Below are positions 3,553 through 24,858 of a stretch of 64,000 nucleotides of DNA, piece after piece. Each line of letters begins with the position of its first letter. The stretch's first letter is position 1. The DNA lies in the NCBI GenBank assembly GCA_049521175.1, contig JBEKPB010000003.1:6704-70703 (forward strand), read 5' to 3'. Made by a program: the position numbers and the translations under genes. The notes under the pieces were generated by a model. That model was not told the DNA's origin, searched no databases, and saw only the letters and a program-made list of their open reading frames with translations. This DNA is from Candidatus Limnocylindrales bacterium. GTDB taxonomy: Bacteria; Chloroflexota; Limnocylindria; Limnocylindrales; CSP1-4.

Positions 3553-5325
<1,773 letters not shown>

Positions 5326-10096: not shown

Positions 10097-10705
10097 TCAG
10101 ACCCCGACGGGCTCGCGCACGAGCACGACCGTGGTTCGGCCGGGCTGCCATTCGCCGTACATCACGAGAACCTTCTCGAGCACTGTGTCGACACCGAGCC
10201 GCTCGCGAACCTGGGCGTTCTCATACGGGAACACGACGTCTTTGATGCGAAGCATGGCGGCCGCGAGGTCGGCAACGATCTTCTGGCTGCCCACGACGAG
10301 GATCAGCCGGCCGGCCCCCGCGGCGTACGCGCCGAGCTGGCTTCCGGTGGCCGACGCGGCAACCAGGGTGCCATCCTCGGTCACCGCCGCCACGCTGCCG
10401 AGCATGTAGTCGGGCGCCGCGATGAGCTTGCGGATCTCGCGAGCCTGGGTCTTGCGATCCATCGCGAAGTAGCGCGGCCGCAACGCATCGTAGCGACCCG
10501 AATCGATGAGCTCGGCGAAGAGGCCGACATCCTCGAGAGTCTTCGACTTGCCCGAATGGACCTCGGCGCCGACCGGGATCATCTCGAGCACGACCTTCCG
10601 GGCCTCATCGGCCGAGTCCACGACGATCGTGTCGATGTTGTGCGAGCGGAGGGCTGCGGCCACTCGTTCGATCCGGTCGTCTGGACTGCTGGCCTGGCTG
10701 GTCAT
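10097..10705 (-). CDS. LUD-domain protein (LutC/YkgG-like)
   Basis: 202 aa with lactate-utilisation LUD-domain signature blocks; start overlaps the tetR stop (ATGA). Confidence 0.6.
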   Translation of the reverse strand: MTSQASSPDDRIERVAAALRSHNIDTIVVDSADEARKVVLEMIPVGAEVHSGKSKTLEDVGLFAELIDSGRYDALRPRYFAMDRKTQAREIRKLIAAPDYMLGSVAAVTEDGTLVAASATGSQLGAYAAGAGRLILVVGSQKIVADLAAAMLRIKDVVFPYENAQVRERLGVDTVLEKVLVMYGEWQPGRTTVVLVREPVGV

Positions 10706-11376
10706 TGCATGCTCCTGGTTTGGGTGGTTGGCCTGGCGAGTCGTCGCATCGCGATCATCATCTGGCGAGGGCCCGGGGGCGGTGGCAGTCGGCTCGCGCC
10801 TTCACTCCGGAAACCGTCGAGCATCAACCCGACGAAACGCTTCCATGCACCCGGCGCGGCCGGCCCGGCAGCCCCGACGACACCGGCGTTCGCCATGAGG
10901 AGCACCACCAGGTCCTCCGGGACGAAGTCGGCTCGCAAAGTCCCCTCTTCCTGGGCGCGCCCGATCAGTCGCACCGACAGTTCGTACCCGCGGGCGCGAT
11001 GCTCTTCCAGTCTCTTGGAGTTCGAGAAAACCCTCGTCAGGACGTCATTCAAGCCTCGGTCGGCGGCTTGCATCGAGCAGATGCGTTCGGCATAGGCGCA
11101 GAAGCCCGACCATCCGTCCGAGGCCTCGAGCGCCTTCTCGGCAGCCTCGGCGTACTCCTCCAGTCTCCGCTCGAAACAGGCCGCGATCAGGTCCTCGCGT
11201 GTCGGAAACCGGCGGTAGAGGGTGGCGATCCCCACGCCCGCATGCTGTGCGACATCCTCGAGCGGAACGTCCAAGCCGCGCTCGGCGAAGTCCGCTTGAG
11301 CGGCTTCCACGATCCGCAACCTGTTCCGCTCCGCGTCGACCCTGAGCCGCGCCGTCTCTTCGTTGTCCCGTTGCAT
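10702..11376 (-). CDS. TetR-family transcriptional regulator
   Basis: N-terminal HTH (RIVEAAQADFAERGLDVPLEDVAQHAGVGIATLYRRFPTREDL) characteristic of the TetR family. Confidence 0.85.
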   Translation of the reverse strand: MQRDNEETARLRVDAERNRLRIVEAAQADFAERGLDVPLEDVAQHAGVGIATLYRRFPTREDLIAACFERRLEEYAEAAEKALEASDGWSGFCAYAERICSMQAADRGLNDVLTRVFSNSKRLEEHRARGYELSVRLIGRAQEEGTLRADFVPEDLVVLLMANAGVVGAAGPAAPGAWKRFVGLMLDGFRSEGASRLPPPPGPRQMMIAMRRLARPTTQTRSMQ

Positions 11377-12594: not shown

Positions 12595-13581
12595 ATGCAG
12601 TTTGCGATCTTCGCGCTCAGCGCCGCCACCAGCCTCGCCGCGAGCATGCTGCTCGTGACGCGTTTGGAGCGGGTCGGCGAGCGGATCGGAGTGTCCGAGG
12701 CGCTCCTCGGGTTGATGGCGGCACTCGCCGCAGATGGTCCCGAGATCACATCGGCGGTCACCGCCATCGCCAGCGGCCACAGCACGGTCGGCATCGGCGT
12801 GACCCTCGGCTCGAACGTCTTCAACCTGGCCGCGCTGCTTGGGTTGAGCGCCCTCATCGCCGGCCGCCTCGCCTTCCATCGGCGGGAGATCCTGCTCGAA
12901 GGCGCCGTCGGATTGTGGATGGCTCTTCTCAGCCTGGCGGTCGTGGCCGGATTGGTCGCGCCGGCGATCGGGCTCGTGCTCGCCCTGGTCGTCTTCGTCC
13001 CTTATCTCGTCGTCAGCGCGGAACCGCCGGCCGCCCGCGTTCGACTGCGCCTGCCGGCGCGGTGGGCCCTATGGCTGGCCCGCGCCCTGGCCGAGGAGGA
13101 GGCGGAGCTCGCCGTGGCAATCCGCCCGCAGCGCGGAGATTGGCGGGATGCGGGTCTGGCACTCCTCGCACTGGTCGTCGTGGTGGTGGCCAGTATCGTC
13201 ATGGAGGAGGGCGCGACAAACATGGGGGCAGCAGCCGGTCTGCCGCAGATCGTCGTGGGCGGTCTGATCCTCGCCGCCGTGACCAGCCTGCCCAACGCTG
13301 TCGCGGCGGTCTACCTGGCCTCGCGAGGACGTGGCTCGGCGACTCTGAGTGAGGCCTTCAACAGCAACGTCTTCAACGTGATCATCGGCTTGCTCGCCCC
13401 CGCCGCCATCCTGGGCCTGGCCAGCTCGGCCGGCGATGGGATCTTCGTGGCTGGGTCGTACCTCGCTATGACGTGTCTGGCCATCGCCCTTGCACTGTGG
13501 AGCAGAGGGCTGGATCGCCGCGGAGGCTCCGTCATCATCGTCGGCTATCTGGCCTTCGTGATCGGGGTCGCGGTCAGATAG
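12595..13581 (+). CDS. CaCA-family (Na+/Ca2+ exchanger-like, YrbG-type) membrane protein
   Basis: Two alpha-repeat regions with GSNVFNL / SNVFNVIIGL motifs and about 10 TM helices. Confidence 0.75.
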   Translation: MQFAIFALSAATSLAASMLLVTRLERVGERIGVSEALLGLMAALAADGPEITSAVTAIASGHSTVGIGVTLGSNVFNLAALLGLSALIAGRLAFHRREILLEGAVGLWMALLSLAVVAGLVAPAIGLVLALVVFVPYLVVSAEPPAARVRLRLPARWALWLARALAEEEAELAVAIRPQRGDWRDAGLALLALVVVVVASIVMEEGATNMGAAAGLPQIVVGGLILAAVTSLPNAVAAVYLASRGRGSATLSEAFNSNVFNVIIGLLAPAAILGLASSAGDGIFVAGSYLAMTCLAIALALWSRGLDRRGGSVIIVGYLAFVIGVAVR

Positions 13582-13803
13582 CAGGCAGGAGGTCCCGCTC
13601 AGGCGCGGAGCGGCGTGGAGATCCACCTCCGCCGACGCCTCTCCAGGCCGTCGATGGAGCCCTCCCGACCACGACGACTATGGAACCAAAGGATCTCCGC
13701 CGGCCCGCCGCGAAGCATTGCCATCGCGAGCGCCTACGGCTGCCGTGGGTTGAGACTCAGCGAAGGCGGGCGATTCTGCCGGTCGCGAACTCGGACGAAC
13801 AGG

Positions 13804-13822
13804 CGGGTTCTCATCCTCGCGG
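13804..13822 (+). promoter_or_regulatory. Copy 1 of recurrent intergenic motif cGGGTTcTCATCCTCGCGG
   Basis: One-mismatch copy of an 18-mer found exactly at 19000 and 20180; about 80 nt upstream of the CsbD-like start. Confidence 0.4.
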
Positions 13823-13901
13823 CCGGGCCGGAACCAGCCTAGCCTCGAGACAGGCGTGGAGACTCAGGACTGACGCCGGCGCCACGGCTACGGAGAACCG
13901 A

Positions 13902-14076
13902 GATGACGGACGAGCACACCAAAGGCTCCATCAATAGAGCCCGGGGCAACCTGGTAGAAGGGTTCGGCAGGTTAACCGGCAGCAGGCGGATGCAAGTCAA
14001 AGGCAAAGCAAGGCAGGCCCTGGGAGATGCACAGCACGGCCTCGGCAAGATCCAGAACGCCATCCGACGGCCCTGA
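13902..14076 (+). pseudogene. CsbD-family general stress protein gene, apparently disrupted by a +1 frameshift
   Basis: From ATG 13902 the frame gives MTDEHTKGSINRARGNLVEGFGRLTG, a CsbD-like KG..G..G.LTG pattern. The +1 frame from about 13975 gives SRRMQVKGKARQALGDAQHGLGKIQNAIRRP ending at TGA 14074-14076. A single extra A in ggcAagc separates the two halves; without it the ORF would be 57 aa. Confidence 0.4.
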
Positions 14077-14098
14077 TCCATTGACCTTGCCGCTGGCT

Positions 14099-14139
14099 CG
14101 CAATCGCAGGCGGCACCACTAGTCTGGCGTGCGATTGCG
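14099..14139. terminator. Stem-loop (10-bp perfect stem CGCAATCGCA / TGCGATTGCG, 21-nt loop) downstream of the CsbD-like gene
   Basis: Inverted repeat seen directly; there is no T-tract, as is common in high-GC bacteria. Confidence 0.35.
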
Positions 14140-14276
14140 GGGATGCGTGCACGGCAATGGCGAGAACGTGGCCTATGAAGTTCTCGAGGCTCCCGGTCGA
14201 GGGGCAAGACACTTTGGGATAACTCGACTGAGTCCCGCTCGGTACGCGGAGAGCACAGAAAGCTAGGAATCAACCG

Positions 14277-14834
14277 ATGACCACCTGGAATCTGGATCCT
14301 GCCCATTCACAGATCGAGTTCGCCGTCAGGCACATGATGGTCACGACGGTGCGCGGCCAGTTCCACAAGTTCGCGGTCGCGGTGGACTTCGACGAGGCGA
14401 ACCCGGAGCGCTCGACGGTCGAGGCGCATATCGACGCATCGAGCATCGAAACGGGGGTGGAGGCCCGCGATGCGCACCTTCGGAGTCCGGACTTCCTCGA
14501 CACTGCCACGTACCCGGAACTCGCCTTCCGCAGCACGCACATCGAGCGGGGCGACGACGGCTACAAGATAGACGGCGATCTGACGATGCACGGAGAGACG
14601 CGGCAAGTGACGCTGGACGCCGAGATCGGCGGCGTCGTACCGAATATGCAGGGCGGGCGCCGCGCCGGCTTCTCCGCGTCCACGAAGATCAGCCGCAAGG
14701 CATGGGGGCTCACCTGGAACGGCGCGCTCGAGACCGGCGGCGTCCTCGTCGGCGACGACGTCAAGATCACGATGGACCTGGCCGTCCTGCAGGCAGAAGC
14801 GGCTGCTCCGAAAGCGGCGGCCGGCGCCGCCTGA
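14277..14834 (+). CDS. YceI-family protein
   Basis: WNLDPAHSQIEFAVRHMMVTTVRGQF...LTMHGETRQVTLD, a canonical YceI-like lipocalin fold signature. Confidence 0.8.
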   Translation: MTTWNLDPAHSQIEFAVRHMMVTTVRGQFHKFAVAVDFDEANPERSTVEAHIDASSIETGVEARDAHLRSPDFLDTATYPELAFRSTHIERGDDGYKIDGDLTMHGETRQVTLDAEIGGVVPNMQGGRRAGFSASTKISRKAWGLTWNGALETGGVLVGDDVKITMDLAVLQAEAAAPKAAAGAA

Positions 14835-15064
14835 GGCACGAAGGGCAGGAAATCTGCCGCGATGCCGTCTCCCACGAACTTCGCCCTGCCGCTCGCGGGT
14901 GGCGCGGCTGCGGATTGAGTCGAAGCCGACGGGTCGATGAGCATCGTGGCGACCGATGGCGCGGAGACATCCCCAGCCAGGCGTCGACGGGCCAGGTCAC
15001 GTCGACCCATCTGATCGGCGAGCCCAAGCAGGCGAACGCGGCCTGAGGAGACGAAACCGTCGGG

Positions 15065-15673
15065 CTAGCGATCCCCTTCGATCCAGCCCTGTTTTTGGGC
15101 GACGCGCACGAGCGAGGTCCGGCTCGTCACGTCGTAGCGGTCGAACATCCGCCGGAGCTGGCTTTCGATGGTCTTCACTCGCAGCGACAGCTGTTCGCCG
15201 ACCTCGGCGTTGCTGAGGCCCTCCGCCACGAGGGCCAGGATCTGGGCCTCGCGAGGCGTCGGCGGGCGGAGCGCCGTGCGCGCCGAACGGCGGACGACGT
15301 CGGGAAAGGCGCTGCCGCCGGCAGCGACCTTGCGCACGGCCGTGAGAATCTCCTGGATGGCCGCCATCTTCGAGAGGTAGCCCTTCGCTCCGTGCTCCAT
15401 CGCGGCCGCGTAGAAGCTCGGGTACGAGTACGCGCTCAGCATGATGAATGCGGGGCCAGGCGTGTGCCGCGCGAGGATCTCCAGCCCGTCCACGGTCTCG
15501 CCCAGGCGGATGTCGCACAGAACGACGTCCGGGTGCCGGGTCTCGATCAGACGATCGGCCTCGACTGCATCCCGGGCCGTCCCCACGACGGTAACGTCGA
15601 GCTCGCCGCGCATCAAGGCGGTGAGACCCTCGGCGATGGCGGGATGATCCTCGACGATCCCCAGCCGGATCAC
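15065..15673 (-). CDS. NarL/FixJ (LuxR)-family response regulator
   Basis: REC domain (D...DVVLCDIRLG) plus C-terminal LuxR HTH (REAQILALVAEGLSNAEVGEQLSLRVKTIESQL). The start overlaps the kinase stop by 4 nt. Confidence 0.85.
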   Translation of the reverse strand: MIRLGIVEDHPAIAEGLTALMRGELDVTVVGTARDAVEADRLIETRHPDVVLCDIRLGETVDGLEILARHTPGPAFIMLSAYSYPSFYAAAMEHGAKGYLSKMAAIQEILTAVRKVAAGGSAFPDVVRRSARTALRPPTPREAQILALVAEGLSNAEVGEQLSLRVKTIESQLRRMFDRYDVTSRTSLVRVAQKQGWIEGDR

Positions 15674-18600
15674 GCTTCAAGCTCCCCTTCGGGCCGGGGA
15701 CTTCGGGCAAGCCGCTTGCCGATCGGGAGCCGGACCACGATCACAGTGCCCTCACCGAGACTCGACGCGGCGTCGATCGACCCGCCATGCGCAGTCACGA
15801 TCTCGCGCGCCAGGTAGAGACCCAGACCGAGACCCGCGGAGGCTTTCTGCCCGAGCCGTGCGTATGGCTGGAAAAGCTGTGGCAGCACGTTGCTCGCGAT
15901 CCCGGGGCCATGGTCGCGGACTTCGACGACGGCGACCGAGCCGGATCGACGCACGATCACGTCGATTGCCGACGTCGCCGCATGCTCGACAGCATTTGCG
16001 AGCAGGTTGACGAAAACCTGCTCGATCCGACCGGCATCCGCGCGAACCCAGATCGGTCCGCGAGTCCGGGCCAAGCGGATCGGCGGGGCCTTCGGCAACG
16101 TCTCGGCAACGTCGATGGCGTCGCACACGACCGCAACCAGATCGATGGTAGTGGCGACCAGCTCCAACCGTCCGGCCTGGATGCGACTCACATCGAAGAG
16201 ACGCTCGACGAGATCCCCGATCTTCCTCGTTTGCGCAAGTGCGCGGGCCGTGTAAGCACGGGCCTCCGTGGTGCCATGCGGGTCGAGATACCGCTCCACG
16301 AGCTGGAGGTACCCATGCAGGGCGGCCACCGGGGTCTTGAGCTCGTGGCCCGCCGCGGCCATCAACCGCTCCAGGCTCAGCCGCATTGTGCGCTCTGACA
16401 GATCGCGGATCGCCAGCACCCCGCCCCAGGTTCGGTCGCCGGCGGTGAGCGGTTCGGCCACGGCCTCGAACCAGCGCCGGGTCCCGCCGGCTTGGGACAC
16501 CGCGAACTCCATGCGAAACCGTTCGCCACGAGCCGCCCGTTGCTGCGGCCGGTCGGCGGGCGGAATGGGCAGCCCGGCAACATCCTCAGGCTCGACCTCG
16601 GCCCCACCGAAGAGTCGATCGTAGGCGTCGTTTGTCACCACGATCTGGCCGTCGTGGTCGACTGCGACGACGGCGTCGCCGAGGCTCGCGAGGATCGACC
16701 GCAGACGATCGTGCTCCTCCTGCAGGCTCAACTTCTGCTGCTCGAGCGCGACCGTCTGGAGACTGAGCTCGTCGGTGCGCGTGGCCAGATCCTCGTTCGC
16801 AACCCGGAGCTCCTCGACGCTCGCGGTCAGCTCCTCGTTGAGCGTTTCGAGTTCCTCGTTGGTGGCCTGGAACTCCTCGTTGACTGTTTCCACTTCCTCG
16901 CGCGTGGCCTGTGCGTCCTCACTGGCCAGGAGCATCGCTTCGTTCGCTATCCGCAGTTCTGCGACCAGGGCGGTCAACTCCTCATTCGCCCGAAGGACCC
17001 GTCCGTTCGTGGCGACGGCTTTCTCGAGTCGCTCCCGTGTCCGGACGCCGGCGCGACGCTCGTGCTCGAGCCTGGTCGCGTCCGTCAGCTCGATGACGGC
17101 GCCATCGATCCCGCGTGTCTCGGCGCGGTATGGGCGGACGGTAGCTTCGACGAAATGGGTCGTCTCGCTCGCCGCGTCCGCTGGCTCCACCTCGAATACG
17201 CCCGAGGTCGTCTTGCCGGTCAGCGCGGAGTCGATTGCCGCGCGGATCGCGCTGGGTGGAAGAACTTCCGCAAGATGGATGAAGTCCTGATCGTAGGCCG
17301 TGCCGTGAATCCCGAGCATCTGGCGTGCGGCGGAATTGATGCGCGTGATGTAGTAGCGAGGGTCGACGACCACGACGCCGACGGTCAGGTTCAGGAGCAG
17401 GCTGTCCGCCGACGCCGACGATTCCGCCACTTGCCGGACGTCGCGGCGCGTGACTCGGATGGCCTCGTCCAGATTCGACCCCTCGCCCCGTCGCGGACGG
17501 AGCACGGCCGGTCGCATTGGTGGGATCGCGTAGCTCCCGGGCAGCCGGCGATAGATACGCAGCCGCGCTTGATCCTCTTCGAATGGGTCGGGCAGGGCCA
17601 TGACGGTCTCAGACGTGCCAAGGACCAGCCGACCGCCGGGCCGCAACGAGAACGCGAAGGTCTCGAGGGCGACCCGCTGCATGAGCGCGGTGAAGTAGAT
17701 CAGCACGTTTCGGCAGAGAAGCAGATCGATCCGCGGGAAGGGCACTCGCTCGCCGAGATCGTGCTCGCCGAAGACCATCAACGCGCGCAGTCGCTTGGCG
17801 ACCTCGTAGCCACCATCCGACTTGACGAAATAGCGGTCCAGAGCGCCTGCGGGCAGGCCCTTGAGGGCGGTGGGTGGATAGATCCCCCTTCGGGCAAACG
17901 CGATGGCCTCGCCGTCGATATCCGTAGCGAAGATCCGCACGTCCGGCCAGGCCTGCTCCTCTCCGAGAGCTTCGGCAACGATGATGGCCAGCGAGTAGGC
18001 CTCTTCGCCGGTGGAACAGCCGGCCGACCAAATGCGGAGCTCCCGCCCATCACGCCTCGCCTCCGCAATGAGCTCGGGGAGGACATGCTCGCGCAGGTAC
18101 TCGAAGAGCTTCGGGTCCCGGAAGAACTCCGTGACCTTGATCAAGAGACTGTTGACCAGCCGCGCGTACTCCTCCGGGTTGGTCTCGAGATATGCCGCGT
18201 ACCCTGCGAGCGTTGGACGGGACGTGGCTTTCATCCGGCCATGCAACCGCCGAAGGATGGTGGCCGGCTTGTAGCTGCCGAAGTGGATGCCGCTTCGCTC
18301 GTGTATCCGTTTGAGCAGCTCGCGGAGCTCATCGTCGTCGCGCCCCGCTGCGGCAGAGGAGCCGGCCGCGAGCAAATCGCAAACGATCGACCCGATCGAG
18401 TCGAGATCGGCCGTCGCGTCGACCAGCGACGAGGGTATAGAACTTGGCATGGACGGGAACATCGCCGTCGCGGGATTCTCGATGACGACGGCTCCGCCCG
18501 CTTGCTTCACGTGCCACGCTCCCGCGGATCCGTCCGACCCGCTGCCGGTCAGGATCACGGCGATGAGGCCGGGACCGAAGATGCCGGCCGCGCTCTCGAG

Positions 18601-18939
18601 CAAGACGTCTATCGAGGGTGCAACCGCACCGGGCCTTGCCGCATGGAGGCGCAGGTCGCCCTGGCTGATGTCCACGAGCCGGTTCGAAGGAACGACGAAG
18701 ATCACGCCATTCTCGAGAACCTCGCGCTCCTCGACCACTCGAACGGGCAGCGTCGCATGACGGGCGAGAATCTCGTGAAGATGACTGGGGCGGCGGGGAT
18801 CGAGATGCTGAGCGATCACGATGGGCGCCGGGAAGTCGGCCGGCAGGCTGGCTACGACGCGCGACAGCGCCTCGATTCCGCCCGCCGATGAACCGATCAC
18901 GACGAGCTGGGATTCCGCTGGTACCGCTTGTGTCGCCAC
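15670..18939 (-). CDS. CheB methylesterase - CheR methyltransferase - coiled coil - PAS - HisKA - HATPase_c fusion sensor kinase
   Basis: N-terminal CheB-like catalytic domain (VVIGSSAGGIEAL...GSGSDGSAG). CheR SAM-methyltransferase block (IWSAGCSTGEEAYSLA...LLCRNVLIYF). Long heptad coiled coil, PAS, H-box (AGHELKTPVAAL) and ATPase G-boxes. Confidence 0.85.
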   Translation of the reverse strand: MATQAVPAESQLVVIGSSAGGIEALSRVVASLPADFPAPIVIAQHLDPRRPSHLHEILARHATLPVRVVEEREVLENGVIFVVPSNRLVDISQGDLRLHAARPGAVAPSIDVLLESAAGIFGPGLIAVILTGSGSDGSAGAWHVKQAGGAVVIENPATAMFPSMPSSIPSSLVDATADLDSIGSIVCDLLAAGSSAAAGRDDDELRELLKRIHERSGIHFGSYKPATILRRLHGRMKATSRPTLAGYAAYLETNPEEYARLVNSLLIKVTEFFRDPKLFEYLREHVLPELIAEARRDGRELRIWSAGCSTGEEAYSLAIIVAEALGEEQAWPDVRIFATDIDGEAIAFARRGIYPPTALKGLPAGALDRYFVKSDGGYEVAKRLRALMVFGEHDLGERVPFPRIDLLLCRNVLIYFTALMQRVALETFAFSLRPGGRLVLGTSETVMALPDPFEEDQARLRIYRRLPGSYAIPPMRPAVLRPRRGEGSNLDEAIRVTRRDVRQVAESSASADSLLLNLTVGVVVVDPRYYITRINSAARQMLGIHGTAYDQDFIHLAEVLPPSAIRAAIDSALTGKTTSGVFEVEPADAASETTHFVEATVRPYRAETRGIDGAVIELTDATRLEHERRAGVRTRERLEKAVATNGRVLRANEELTALVAELRIANEAMLLASEDAQATREEVETVNEEFQATNEELETLNEELTASVEELRVANEDLATRTDELSLQTVALEQQKLSLQEEHDRLRSILASLGDAVVAVDHDGQIVVTNDAYDRLFGGAEVEPEDVAGLPIPPADRPQQRAARGERFRMEFAVSQAGGTRRWFEAVAEPLTAGDRTWGGVLAIRDLSERTMRLSLERLMAAAGHELKTPVAALHGYLQLVERYLDPHGTTEARAYTARALAQTRKIGDLVERLFDVSRIQAGRLELVATTIDLVAVVCDAIDVAETLPKAPPIRLARTRGPIWVRADAGRIEQVFVNLLANAVEHAATSAIDVIVRRSGSVAVVEVRDHGPGIASNVLPQLFQPYARLGQKASAGLGLGLYLAREIVTAHGGSIDAASSLGEGTVIVVRLPIGKRLARSPRPEGELEA

Positions 18940-18997
18940 GATGTCCGCATTCTAGGGTCGGCGACCAAGTCGCGCGATCGCCCGACTTGATTGCCCT

Positions 18998-19017
18998 CGG
19001 GGTTTTCATCCTCGCGG
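18998..19017 (+). promoter_or_regulatory. Copy 2 of recurrent motif cGGGGTTTTCATCCTCGCGG
   Basis: Exact 18-mer GGGTTTTCATCCTCGCGG; about 180 nt upstream of the Cys-repeat protein gene and in the divergent promoter region shared with the CheBR kinase. Confidence 0.4.
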
Positions 19018-19194
19018 AAGGATCGAAGCAGAGGCACCATCTGGTCCGTGTTCCGGGCGCATCAGAAGCCATAACCGATGAGACGACCACCAGGCCGTCA
19101 CGCAGAGGCTAACGGTGACCCCGGGCGGTAGACCCAACGGACGGACGGTCGTGGCACCACCGCGACGACGCTCGACCCAACAGCAGGTGGCTTC

Positions 19195-20067
19195 ATGCAT
19201 CGATCCTTGACCTTCCTCTTGCGGGGCGTGTTCGCGTTCGCGTTGCTGGCACCCGCAGCGATGATCACCACCACGCCTGTGGCTGCCGCGACGATCGCCG
19301 CGACCACGTCGTGCAGCAACGGTGTCGACAACACCGGCGGCCTGGGCCTGATCTGTCAGGTCACCGTCGTGAACACGATCACGGGAACCGGCGGATCCGC
19401 GACGGTAACGGTCCACGAGTGTCACGGCGCCGCAGGCGATCCGACGGCGGCCTGCACGGACACGACCACCTCCCTCACCTCGCCGGTCACCGCAGTCACG
19501 CAGTGCAACGACTCGATCAACGGCGGTGGCGGCACGCTCCGGTGCAGCGTCCTGATCACGAACAACTTCGTCGGCGTCAGTCCCGGTTCGACGGCCGCTA
19601 CGGTCAACCAGTGCGTCGGTTCGGGCGGTGGCATCACGACCGGCTGCGATCCCTTCCCGGCCACCACGACGGGCGCGGCCATCACGCAATGCAATGGCTC
19701 CGCCAACGGCGGGACGCTCGTGGGCCTGACATGCACAGCGACCGGCACGATGGCCTCAGCCGCGAGTGTCACGATCAACCAGTGCAACGGCTCCGCCAAC
19801 GGCGGTGGCGCCCTTGTCATCTGCTCCGCCAGCCTAGTCAACAACGCGGTCGCGGGCCCGACGGCCTCGCCCGGAGCGTCCGTGACATCGGCGCCGGGAG
19901 CGTCCGCGACACCGGCGCCGGGAGCGTCCGTGACACCGGCGCCAACCAGCACCGTCAGCGATGGTTCGAGCAGCCCGACACCTTTGTTCGGGCTGATGAT
20001 CCTCCTCGCGTTGAGCGCGTTCGGTCTGGTGGCAGTCGTGACGCAGCGACGGAGCATCCGCCGCTAG
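19195..20067 (+). CDS. Secreted repetitive protein with tandem two-Cys repeats and a C-terminal TM/basic anchor
   Basis: Signal peptide. Five tandem ~30-aa repeats of the form (T/S)QCN(G/D)S(A/I)NGG(G)(T/A)L..C.. each with two Cys. Then a PAPGAS low-complexity spacer and a C-terminal PTPLFGLMILLALSAFGLVAVVTQRRSIRR. Confidence 0.6.
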   Translation: MHRSLTFLLRGVFAFALLAPAAMITTTPVAAATIAATTSCSNGVDNTGGLGLICQVTVVNTITGTGGSATVTVHECHGAAGDPTAACTDTTTSLTSPVTAVTQCNDSINGGGGTLRCSVLITNNFVGVSPGSTAATVNQCVGSGGGITTGCDPFPATTTGAAITQCNGSANGGTLVGLTCTATGTMASAASVTINQCNGSANGGGALVICSASLVNNAVAGPTASPGASVTSAPGASATPAPGASVTPAPTSTVSDGSSSPTPLFGLMILLALSAFGLVAVVTQRRSIRR

Positions 20068-20178
20068 CCAATCCGAGGTCGCCTCAAGCGACCGCTACAG
20101 CCCCTGACCGCGATCGACGGGCCGCTCCCTCGGCCCGTCGATCCATTTGCGCGGGGTCCGGTCGGCCGCCGCACCGAT

Positions 20179-20197
20179 CGGGTTTTCATCCTCGCGG
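20179..20197 (+). promoter_or_regulatory. Copy 3 of recurrent motif cGGGTTTTCATCCTCGCGG
   Basis: Exact 18-mer, about 110 nt upstream of the YggT-like gene. Confidence 0.4.
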
Positions 20198-20304
20198 CGC
20201 GCGGAGACCATGGCGCAGTATCTGATCGCGACCACGGATCAACGGCTCCATCGGCTGTACAGCCGGGTGCAGGTCCATCGTCCGTCGCCGGGAAGAAGAC
20301 CACC

Positions 20305-20718
20305 GTGACAGTTCAGGAACAGCGGAGCGTCACCACGGACGCGCCGACCACCACCGAGTCCGGTGGCTTGACCAACCGGACCGTAACCAGCCGCCAGCTC
20401 GACGTTAGGCCCAGCAACAACGAGACAGCCCGCCGCATCGTCGTCCTCGTCTTCGGTCTGATCCAGATCGTGATCGGCCTGAGGATCGTCCTGCTGCTTC
20501 TCGACGCCCGAGAAGGCAACCTTCTCGTCTCAATCATCAACAACGTGGGCGGGGTCTTGGCCGCGCCGTTCCAGGGGATCCTGCGCATCAGCGCCGTTTC
20601 GGCCGGAGGCTCGGTGCTCGATGTCGCCGCAGTCGTGGCTCTTGTCGGGTGGACGCTCATCGAGCTCATCGCGATCTGGAGCCTGGGCATCTTCCGGCGC
20701 GAGCACTCCGTCGCCTAG
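20305..20718 (+). CDS. YggT-family membrane protein with extended N-terminal tail
   Basis: C-terminal 70 aa (LRIVLLLLDAREGNLLVSIINNVGGVLAAPFQGILRI...GGSVLDVAAVVALVGWTLIE) match the YggT/Ycf19 pattern (R.LLSW...P..R...P.GG.D.SP.VA). GTG start; the true start may be further downstream. Confidence 0.5.
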   Translation: MTVQEQRSVTTDAPTTTESGGLTNRTVTSRQLDVRPSNNETARRIVVLVFGLIQIVIGLRIVLLLLDAREGNLLVSIINNVGGVLAAPFQGILRISAVSAGGSVLDVAAVVALVGWTLIELIAIWSLGIFRREHSVA

Positions 20719-20787
20719 TTCAAAAGCAAGCATGCGGGCCCGATGAACGAACCTCGGCGTCGGGCCTGCCCAGAAAGAAGGACTTCA

Positions 20788-21075
20788 ATGGACATTCCCC
20801 AAATGACACTCGTCGCCTGGGTCGTGGTCGGCGCTATCGCCGGCTTCCTCGCCAGTCGCATCATGGGGGCCCGCGAGGGCCTATTGATGATGGTCGTGCT
20901 CGGCATCGTGGGCGCTGTCGTCGGCGGATGGATCGCGAGCGATGTGCTCAAGGTCGCCAACGTGACCGGCATCAACGTCACGAGCATCGTCGTCGCGGTA
21001 GTCGGAGCGATGATCGTCATCTTCGCCGTCGGGCTTCTCGGCGGCCGGAAGAGAACTCGTTTCGGCTGGCACTGA
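20788..21075 (+). CDS. GlsB/YeaQ/YmgE-family stress-response membrane protein
   Basis: Trimmed to internal ATG (MDIPQMTLVAWVVVGAIAGFLASRIMG...). Characteristic G-rich paired TM helices of the transglycosylase-associated protein family. Confidence 0.7.
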   Translation: MDIPQMTLVAWVVVGAIAGFLASRIMGAREGLLMMVVLGIVGAVVGGWIASDVLKVANVTGINVTSIVVAVVGAMIVIFAVGLLGGRKRTRFGWH

Positions 21076-21121
21076 TCCCAACGGCGCTCTTTTGGGCGCT
21101 CACCTCGTTCTGAAACCATCC

Positions 21122-21157
21122 AGCAGGAACGACCCCGGACGGCGGGCCGTTCCTGCT
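21122..21157. terminator. Hairpin (10-bp stem AGCAGGAACG/CGTTCCTGCT, 16-nt loop) followed by CTTGTT
   Basis: Perfect inverted repeat seen directly downstream of the GlsB-like gene. Confidence 0.5.
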
Positions 21158-21198
21158 CTTGTTAACGCCCAGGTCCAACGCATAGCGGGATCCGGCAC

Positions 21199-21474
21199 GT
21201 GATCGACCTCTCGCATCCAGCAATTCAACGGGTGGTCGAGGTAGCCTCCCGCAAGGGAGTCGTGCTCGATGTCAGGCCGATGTCTCACTCCACCCACACC
21301 CCCGAGGAGGCGGACACGGCCGTCGATGCCGAACTCGGACAGATCGTGAAGTCGGTCGTATTCGTTGCCCCACGCCCGCACGGCGGCCCCTGTCCGAGAG
21401 GTGCCGGAGCTCTCGGCAGTCAGCCAGGTAGAACGCAGAAGCTGGGCCGGTCGCTCGCCGGCCAAGGTCGGTGA
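21199..21474 (+). pseudogene. YbaK/ProX-type aminoacyl-tRNA deacylase remnant (truncated or frameshifted)
   Basis: The first ~60 aa (IQRVVEVASRKGVVLDV...HTPEEADTAVDAELGQIVKSVVFVAPRP) match the N-terminus of YbaK/ProX editing domains. The ORF then degenerates and stops, while a weakly YbaK-like continuation appears in another frame, overlapped by the next gene. Confidence 0.3.
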
Positions 21475-24498: not shown

Positions 24499-24570
24499 TC
24501 AGCGGCGGCTGAATCGCAGTCCGCCGAACAGGAACAGAACGATGAGGACGATGACCACGAGTTCCAACAT
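24499..24570 (-). CDS. Putative 23-aa hydrophobic small protein MLELVVIVLIVLFLFGGLRFSRR
   Basis: ATG preceded by AAAGGGG 7 nt upstream. Single TM-like helix with a basic C-terminus, located in a 480-nt intergenic region. Confidence 0.3.
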   Translation of the reverse strand: MLELVVIVLIVLFLFGGLRFSRR

Positions 24571-24858
24571 GGGAGACCCCTTTCATCGTCAGACTGCTCG
24601 TCCTTGGCCCGCGGGGTGAGGATGGAAACTCTCCTCCGGGATCCCCGTAGGCCACACGCTCCGGTCAATGGACCGGGAAGGGGGCGCGGAACCGAAACAG
24701 CGTGCAGCTGAGCACCGGACTCTCCGGGTCGGCTGCGTGACCTTTGATCAGCCGGCAAGGACAGGGGCCATACTCTACCTTCGTAATAGATCTGGACAAA
24801 GGCTCAAAGCGCCCGAAGCGCCGGGCGGAGCAGGCGTCAACCCGGTGGAGGTGGCTAC

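Follow-up and report, generated by a model that had tools for sequence, protein, structure and literature searches.

What reads an 18-nucleotide (nt) sequence that recurs, always facing a gene, ahead of stress-related genes of an uncultured bacterium? The question is raised by a 64,000-nt stretch of DNA from a Candidatus Limnocylindrales bacterium (GenBank assembly GCA_049521175.1, contig JBEKPB010000003.1), which is hereafter called the window. An earlier note had pointed out two exact copies of the 18-mer GGGTTTTCATCCTCGCGG and a third copy with one mismatch, and had proposed a transcription-factor site, an alternative-sigma promoter element or a small structured RNA. Limnocylindria is an abundant uncultured Chloroflexota class of soil, peat and freshwater, and we know of no work on its global stress regulation. 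Here we show, with strong support, that a conserved bipartite promoter has the 18-mer as its upstream half and defines a general-stress-like regulon in Limnocylindria. A two-component system encoded in the window is our candidate for its reader.

A bipartite promoter element

Search of the window confirmed the three copies (sites 1 to 3, Table 1), with the positions, plus strand and mismatch status reported earlier. All three are intergenic, and their ends are separated by 80, 177 and 107 nt from the start codons of the plus-strand CsbD-like (13903), Cys-repeat (19195) and YggT-like (20305) genes, respectively, in agreement with the range of about 80-180 nt first given. Chance does not account for them, since dinucleotide-shuffled sequences contained 0.08 matches on average and three or more matches were obtained in 0 of 100 shuffles. 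The 18-mer contains 7 A/T positions and not 8 as had been counted. The gene labels CsbD (PF05532) and GlsB/Transgly_assoc were upheld, whereas 'YggT' corresponds to a sub-threshold Pfam match (E=0.022) and is written here as YggT-like. The edges of the 18-mer are sharp, the flanks of the three copies being unalignable when the three regions were compared. A plain 18-mer search revealed no further match with up to three mismatches in the 64 kb. A composite scan, which required the core of the motif with up to three mismatches together with YAnnnT at the correct distance, returned exactly four sites in the window as against a shuffle mean of 0.4. The additional site (site 4), missed by the earlier note, retains the invariant core and the -10 spacing. 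All four sites lie within 6 kb of the kinase-regulator operon (15065-18939).

The downstream half of the element was seen in 82 unique core sites, which were counted at every offset and without a spacing filter. The pattern.A...T followed the 18-mer at 17 nt in 43 sites and at 18 nt in 40, as compared to 0-5 sites at almost every other offset, and YAnnnT was present at 17 or 18 nt in essentially all 82. The 17/18-nt spacing rule was also used to select 116 unique sites in the window and in related contigs of Limnocylindria, loci chosen otherwise than through the motif being included. Their logo gave the -10 region as G(-15) n C(-13) Y A nnn T C/G, an extended form, with CAGACT as the commonest hexamer. 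YAnnnT at +17/18 was the only conserved partner element. Element pairs of the sigma-B/SigF (GTTT..GGGTAT), extracytoplasmic function (ECF; GGAAC..CGT), sigma-54 and SigK-like types were also tried and were set aside, as no conserved partner element was found at the required spacings.

The motif consists of an invariant core, GGGTTYYCATCCTC, and a softer 3' end, (G/A)(C/T)G(G/C). Positions 1-5 and 8-14 are fixed or nearly so by the search pattern, and the logo of the 116 sites cannot show their conservation. Searches with either half of the core alone recovered the other half almost every time, and neither half was ever found without the other at the proper distance from a -10. Pyrimidines occupy positions 6-7. 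The softer positions 15-18 read GCGG in 58 of the 82 sites and GCGC, GCAG, ACGG, GTTC or others in the remainder; it is mostly at positions 6-7 and 15-18 that secondarily found sites, with 1-3 mismatches, differ.

The motif is always oriented toward the downstream gene, and its distances to the gene and to the -10 hexamer are fixed. A consensus promoter scan of 13500-21200 found neither a TTGACA-like -35 nor a canonical -35/-10 pair, the -35 position being occupied by TCGCGG or its variants, and a terminator scan showed that the motif is not part of a terminator. The -10 looks like one of the sigma-70 family, as read by a primary or group-2-type sigma factor; A(-11)...T(-7) is the pattern read by both. 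With the hexamer set at -12 to -7, the motif, as counted from the transcription start that we infer, would span about -47 to -30 and its invariant core would be centred near -41, so that the motif would occupy the -35 position plus one turn upstream. Relative to this predicted start, the geometry is that of a class II promoter, in which the activator site lies near -41.5 and overlaps the -35 region.

Conservation was further evident at orthologous promoters. In 14 orthologous YggT-like promoters, motif positions 1-15 (GGGTTTTCATCCTCG) are invariant, the DNA upstream is unalignable, the spacer is variable, and the -10 region and the 5' untranslated region (UTR) are conserved. The motif is also present upstream of Cys-repeat and csbD orthologues, with differing spacers. 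The motif is thus kept while its flanks diverge, and the loss of conservation at orthologous promoters that the earlier note had named as a possible refutation was not observed. The proposal of a promoter element is strongly supported because of the fixed 17/18-nt spacing to the -10, the gene-directed orientation, the orthologous invariance and the general-stress-like gene set; either a transcription factor or a sigma factor may read it.

Distribution and gene content of the regulon

The exact 18-mer (GGGTTYTCATCCTCGCGG) was scanned against one genome per species, which yielded at least 118 loci. Among the matches listed, about 52 loci were of promoter type, all from Limnocylindria/Limnocylindrales or unclassified Chloroflexi metagenome-assembled genomes. 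In these the motif was intergenic and pointed at a gene, thereby departing from the random placement relative to genes that had been named as a second possible refutation. The rest of the listed matches (Proteobacteria, Archaea and others) fell in conserved coding sequence or were isolated chance matches, and 18-mer matches outside Chloroflexota were not counted as promoter sites, being chance or coding (e.g. CcmF-like genes).

Coding occurrences of the exact 18-mer, whose reverse complement encodes ..REDENP.., form two groups of nine and five loci. The genes concerned are a conserved Chloroflexi membrane-protein gene and alphaproteobacterial glutathionylspermidine-synthase-like genes. These matches are unrelated to the promoter element and are a caution for genome scans that rely on the motif only.

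When the unique sites were sorted by downstream gene, 23 preceded the YggT-like/GlsB operon, 17 CsbD, 12 a small membrane-anchored protein family, 8 the Cys-repeat protein, 6 DUF5661 and 5 an AI-2E transporter. Further genes directly behind sites encode GGDEF, DUF6479, Dps/ferritin, family 2 glycosyltransferase (GT2), Transgly_assoc, PRC-barrel, DUF1269, alpha/beta-hydrolase, YceI and DksA/YteA-like proteins and tiny hydrophobic peptides. This gene content is typical of general stress regulons elsewhere.

The candidate regulator and its rivals

The window encodes a NarL/LuxR-family response regulator and, next to it, a CheB-CheR-PAS histidine kinase. Kinase and/or regulator were present in at least 13 of the about 52 motif-selected 8-kb loci among the matches listed, with 53-93% kinase identity. 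In the reverse test, 80 metagenome loci were retrieved via the regulator protein alone. Orthologue loci, where the regulator is at least 53% identical, contained 37 composite sites in 232 kb, as compared to 0 sites in 291 kb of paralogue loci, where the regulator is at most 48% identical and the CheB-CheR kinase is absent. The kinase and regulator genes were adjacent in all orthologous loci, the kinase always directly upstream, and a motif site was often found 25-50 nt past the regulator stop codon. The recognition helix in the helix-turn-helix (HTH) domain of the regulator, KTVESQLRRxFDRY, is nearly invariant down to 54% overall identity, which we read as matching the invariance of the motif. 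The homologue search for the regulator listed only relatives of at least 78% identity, and the distant orthologues came from the metagenome locus scan. A 213-kb metagenome contig and 41 blocks of the assembly collection contain the regulator itself, which indicates that the organism is widespread. The closest solved relatives of the regulator are DesR, VraR, NarL and DevR (PDB 3c3w, E=1.4e-15 for DevR). Activation from a site that overlaps the -35 is common in the NarL/LuxR family, LuxR and DosR being examples.

We put the probability that the motif is a class-II-type activator site for this regulator at somewhat better than even, roughly 55%. The adjacent kinase would phosphorylate the regulator, which would bind the motif and, as a class-II-type activator standing in for the missing -35 element, would recruit RNA polymerase. 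That the binding protein is this regulator, and that it activates rather than represses, is what we infer from the arrangement of the loci.

Several points weigh against this assignment. The association of regulator and motif is confounded with taxonomy, as the paralogue loci may stem from organisms without the regulon, and the conserved synteny may represent one evolutionary event. No motif was found close to paralogous regulators whose recognition helix is almost the same (Q->H). The site nearest to the kinase-regulator operon is directed away from it, and there is no sign of the positive autoregulation that two-component systems typically show. Inspection of the logo revealed no direct repeat and, as internal symmetry, only a weak pseudo-dyad, GAGG-N8-CCTC, with 5/8 pairs, which moreover uses two upstream bases conserved in just about 45-50% of sites. 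A motif without a clear dyad or direct repeat is atypical of dimeric NarL-family regulators. Finally, every promoter position is counted from a putative -10, and both start and binding are predictions.

The kinase carries complete CheB methylesterase and CheR methyltransferase domains N-terminal to PAS-HisKA-HATPase. This architecture is kept down to 48% identity in related Chloroflexota, and similar fusions are found in Alphaproteobacteria (31% identity). A good -10, TAGAAT, at 18954->18949 on the minus strand (region 18942-18954), precedes the GTG start codon of the kinase by only about 10 nt and suggests that the kinase-regulator mRNA is leaderless or near-leaderless. If a leaderless kinase start is taken, motif site 2 would be centred at about -64 from it, on the opposite strand.

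A dedicated general-stress alternative sigma factor of the sigma-B, sigma-S or EcfG-like kind could read the motif as its (extended) -35, with no separate activator, and the regulon has the content that such factors govern elsewhere. The absence of a TTGACA-like -35 from the region scanned is in keeping with such a factor, as is the strictly bipartite build, in which 17/18 nt from the end of the 18-mer to the -10 would be the canonical sigma-70-family spacer if TCGCGG is the -35. The -10 has a flavour of its own (C/T at -12, C at -13, G at -15), and such a flavour resembles sigma-S-type selectivity. However, the most invariant bases (positions 1-14) lie upstream of the placement of sigma region 4, and conservation is lowest in the putative -35 hexamer (positions 13-18); with CATCCTC as the -35, the spacer would be 21-22 nt, beyond the known range. 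Stress sigma factors are usually autoregulated, but a sigma gene stood behind none of the 116 sites. A phmmer search of all open reading frames (ORFs), with E. coli RpoE, B. subtilis SigB and the RpoD C-terminus as queries, found five ECF genes in about 700 kb of loci, none of them in the window or behind a site; only two of the five are orthologous to each other, and those near sites were otherwise scattered and non-orthologous. Pfam annotation of 20 further window proteins revealed no sigma factor. The motif is also unlike the consensus sequences known for sigma-B, SigF, EcfG and other ECF factors. We regard a dedicated sigma factor as unlikely.

Two orthologous ECF-type sigma genes (55% identical), at 10602-11108 (+) of locus L124 and 3951-4604 (-) of locus L128, both metagenome contigs, lie within a few kb of the kinase-regulator cluster, and the L128 gene is directly downstream of the motif-driven YggT-GlsB operon. 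The window has no counterpart.

It is similarly improbable, in our judgement, that the motif is bound by another transcription factor encoded elsewhere, for instance a monomeric two-HTH AraC/MarA-like or a one-component regulator, and that the two-component system simply belongs to, or adjoins, a 'stress island'. Monomeric activators, MarA/SoxS among them, typically use an asymmetric site of 14-18 bp that overlaps the -35. The symmetry that a NarL-type dimer would lead one to expect is absent from the motif, and many sites are far from the kinase-regulator pair. On the other hand, no other regulator gene recurs beside the sites, and the TetR and cyclic nucleoside monophosphate (cNMP)-binding proteins of the window are more than 5 kb away and not syntenic. 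Of all regulators, only the kinase-regulator pair is found consistently in the midst of the sites, down to 48-54% protein identity.

A role at the RNA level, as a structured 5'-UTR element, a small-RNA target or an anti-Shine-Dalgarno sequence (the motif contains CAUCCUC), is very improbable. CATCCTC is complementary to GAGGATG, and some csbD leaders in other genomes have GAGGAT in a hairpin 14-15 nt past the -10; this hairpin, however, is missing at the four window sites and was seen at only about 10 of the 116 sites. The invariance of the motif offers no covariation, and with the conserved -10 downstream of it, the motif is probably not transcribed from its own promoter. Rfam gave nothing relevant at the gathering threshold in the whole window or at E<=1 in 13.5-20.8 kb. 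Folding of three sites on both strands was no better than that of shuffles (z-scores -0.23 to +1.35) and revealed no shared fold. The structured RNA proposed earlier was accordingly rejected, there being no Rfam match and no stable or shared fold, and the motif lying upstream of the predicted start. Several near-identical copies per genome might recall remnants of a dispersed repeat or mobile element (repetitive extragenic palindrome or miniature inverted-repeat transposable element-like), an origin that is hardly credible for 14-18 conserved nt with sharp edges, unrelated flanks, no inverted-repeat partners, and fixed orientation and distance to the downstream genes and the -10 hexamer.

Features of the window and related systems

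The features of the window are collected in Table 1.

Table 1. Motif sites, -10-like hexamers, genes and leader in the window (positions of the 64,000-nt stretch)
Feature	Position	Strand	Remarks
Motif site 1, GGGTTCTCATCCTCGCGG	13805-13822	+	One mismatch; about -47 to -30 of the csbD promoter (predicted start)
-10-like hexamer TAGCCT	13840-13845	+	17 nt past site 1
CsbD-like gene, 57 aa	13903-14076	+	PF05532, E=9e-12; first gene past site 1
YceI-like gene	14277-14834	+	Possibly co-transcribed with csbD
NarL/LuxR-family response regulator, REC + GerE HTH	15065-15673	-	PF00072 + PF00196; candidate reader of the motif
CheB-CheR-PAS-HisKA-HATPase histidine kinase	15670-18939	-	Cognate partner of the regulator
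Motif site 2, GGGTTTTCATCCTCGCGG	19000-19017	+	Divergent region between kinase start (18939) and Cys-repeat gene
-10-like hexamer CACCAT	19035-19040	+	17 nt past site 2
Cys-repeat secreted or membrane-anchored protein, 290 aa	19195-20067	+	Motif upstream of orthologues too
Motif site 3, GGGTTTTCATCCTCGCGG	20180-20197	+	Upstream of YggT-like/GlsB pair
-10-like hexamer CAGTAT	20216-20221	+	18 nt past site 3
Conserved leader of YggT-like gene, about 80 nt	20228-20304	+	Start predicted from the -10 position
YggT-like small membrane protein	20305-20718	+	Sub-threshold Pfam YGGT
GlsB/YeaQ/YmgE (Transgly_assoc) protein	20743-21075	+	Same operon, downstream of YggT-like gene
Tiny ORF, 23-aa hydrophobic peptide MLELVVIVLIVLFLFGGLRFSRR	24499-24570	-	Preceded by site 4
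-10-like hexamer CAGTCT	24591-24596	-	17 nt past site 4
Motif site 4, GAGTTTCCATCCTCACCC	24614-24631	-	Core kept, 3' end degenerate; composite scan

The YceI-like gene has an orthologue, in another locus (L098), with a motif site of its own. The Cys-repeat protein matched no Pfam or NCBIfam family. Its repeats, of about 45 aa each, carry Cys pairs at regular spacing (…QCNGSANGG…C…); it also has a linker rich in Pro, Ala and Ser and, at the C-terminus, a transmembrane helix. It is conserved beside the kinase in many Limnocylindria contigs, at 54-80% identity. Tiny ORFs homologous to that behind site 4 stand behind the same GAGTTTCCATCCTC motif variant in three other loci, one of which (L020) encodes MEILLIIVVLILLFGGGFSLYRR; the 23-aa ORF probably encodes a small membrane protein that belongs to the regulon and has escaped annotation.

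The leader of the YggT-like gene is far better conserved than the promoter spacer, with orthologues in a dozen loci and others, and contains a predicted hairpin, CCGGCU..AGCCGG, with a few compensatory changes. A short upstream-ORF-like frame in it, MQVHRPSPGRRPP*, has a stop overlapping the GTG start and a start codon of its own that varies (ATG, GTG or CTG). No Rfam match was obtained for this leader, which may be an undescribed cis-regulatory leader. The hairpin of csbD-type leaders in other genomes, noted above, is the hairpin or palindrome CATGAGGAT(T/C)CATG and was found in seven named loci and others. It would stand at the extreme 5' end of the transcript as predicted, its loop containing a Shine-Dalgarno-like GAGGA, and might act either to stabilise the 5' end (STAB-SD-like) or as a second operator.

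The regulation proposed here can be compared with several known systems. The DosR/DevR dormancy regulon of Mycobacterium tuberculosis, which is served by the PAS/GAF kinases DosS/DosT, likewise has a NarL/LuxR-type regulator gene next to a kinase, an operator of about 18-20 bp overlapping or abutting the -35 of dozens of promoters, and a regulon of small stress/dormancy proteins; DevR and the window regulator are also related in sequence. Unlike the DosR box, which is a clear palindrome of 20 bp, the Limnocylindria motif is asymmetric and of unrelated sequence; the kinase has fused CheB and CheR, and lineage and gene content differ. Class II activation by LuxR/TraR, with the lux box at -42.5, shares the GerE/LuxR-type HTH, a site of about 18-20 bp near -41 to -42 (a position that is predicted here) and a -10-only promoter. 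However, the lux and tra boxes are palindromic and bind ligand-activated dimers, unlike the asymmetric site and the phosphorylation-dependent response regulator that is the Limnocylindria candidate. Among other members of the family, asymmetric sites are known for GerE, CsgD and GadE.

As regards gene content, the general stress regulons of sigma-B (Bacillus), sigma-S (E. coli) and PhyR-EcfG (Alphaproteobacteria) share CsbD/YjbJ, YmgE/GlsB-type Transgly_assoc, Dps, PRC-barrel, DUF1269 and DksA/YteA-like proteins, and in them too a single promoter signature is common to many unlinked genes. These regulons are defined by alternative sigma factors (GTTT-N12-15-GGGTAT; GGAAC-N16-17-CGTT; the -10 only for sigma-S), in contrast to the 14-18-nt upstream element with a primary-sigma-like -10 in Limnocylindria, where the linked regulator is a two-component one. 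In Bacillus cereus, RsbM acts in sigma-B control by CheR-type methylation. The RsbK-RsbY(-RsbM) system resembles the present one in placing a general stress response under a multi-domain sensor kinase linked to CheR-type methylation. Its output is a PP2C phosphatase that releases sigma-B, and its methyltransferase is a separate protein, whereas the Limnocylindria kinase has CheB and CheR fused and the output is a DNA-binding regulator (for RsbK-RsbY control of sigma-B, see PMC9912610). Thus the logic is like that of the DosR regulon and of LuxR class II promoters and the content is like that of the sigma-B, sigma-S and EcfG regulons, while the motif matches none of their consensus sequences.

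Our search of the literature found no description of the motif, of Limnocylindria stress regulation or of general stress systems with CheB/CheR kinases. The element is an undescribed regulon-defining promoter/operator element with a candidate two-component regulator, and the kind of system is already known. A promoter/operator motif of a regulon is an ordinary object; the value lies in a clean prediction and not in a new mechanism, and interest to specialists is moderate, though it would be greater if two-component control of a general stress regulon were confirmed. The motif allows a regulon to be defined by sequence; this regulon spans at least 20 gene families, among them several proteins of unknown function as well as tiny membrane peptides, and can be traced in any metagenome or metatranscriptome. 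The motif also points to one specific, testable regulator pair. If the regulator assignment is true, a 'general stress' gene set would be under a two-component activator and not a dedicated sigma factor, and the widespread uncharacterised CheB-CheR-fused histidine kinases would gain a functional context. A broader reading, which we offer only tentatively, is that the class Limnocylindria would run its general stress or dormancy response via a two-component system in place of an alternative sigma factor, that the fused CheB/CheR could give it built-in adaptation, and that a NarL-type regulator would here read an unusually long, asymmetric, near-invariant class II site of 14-18 bp.

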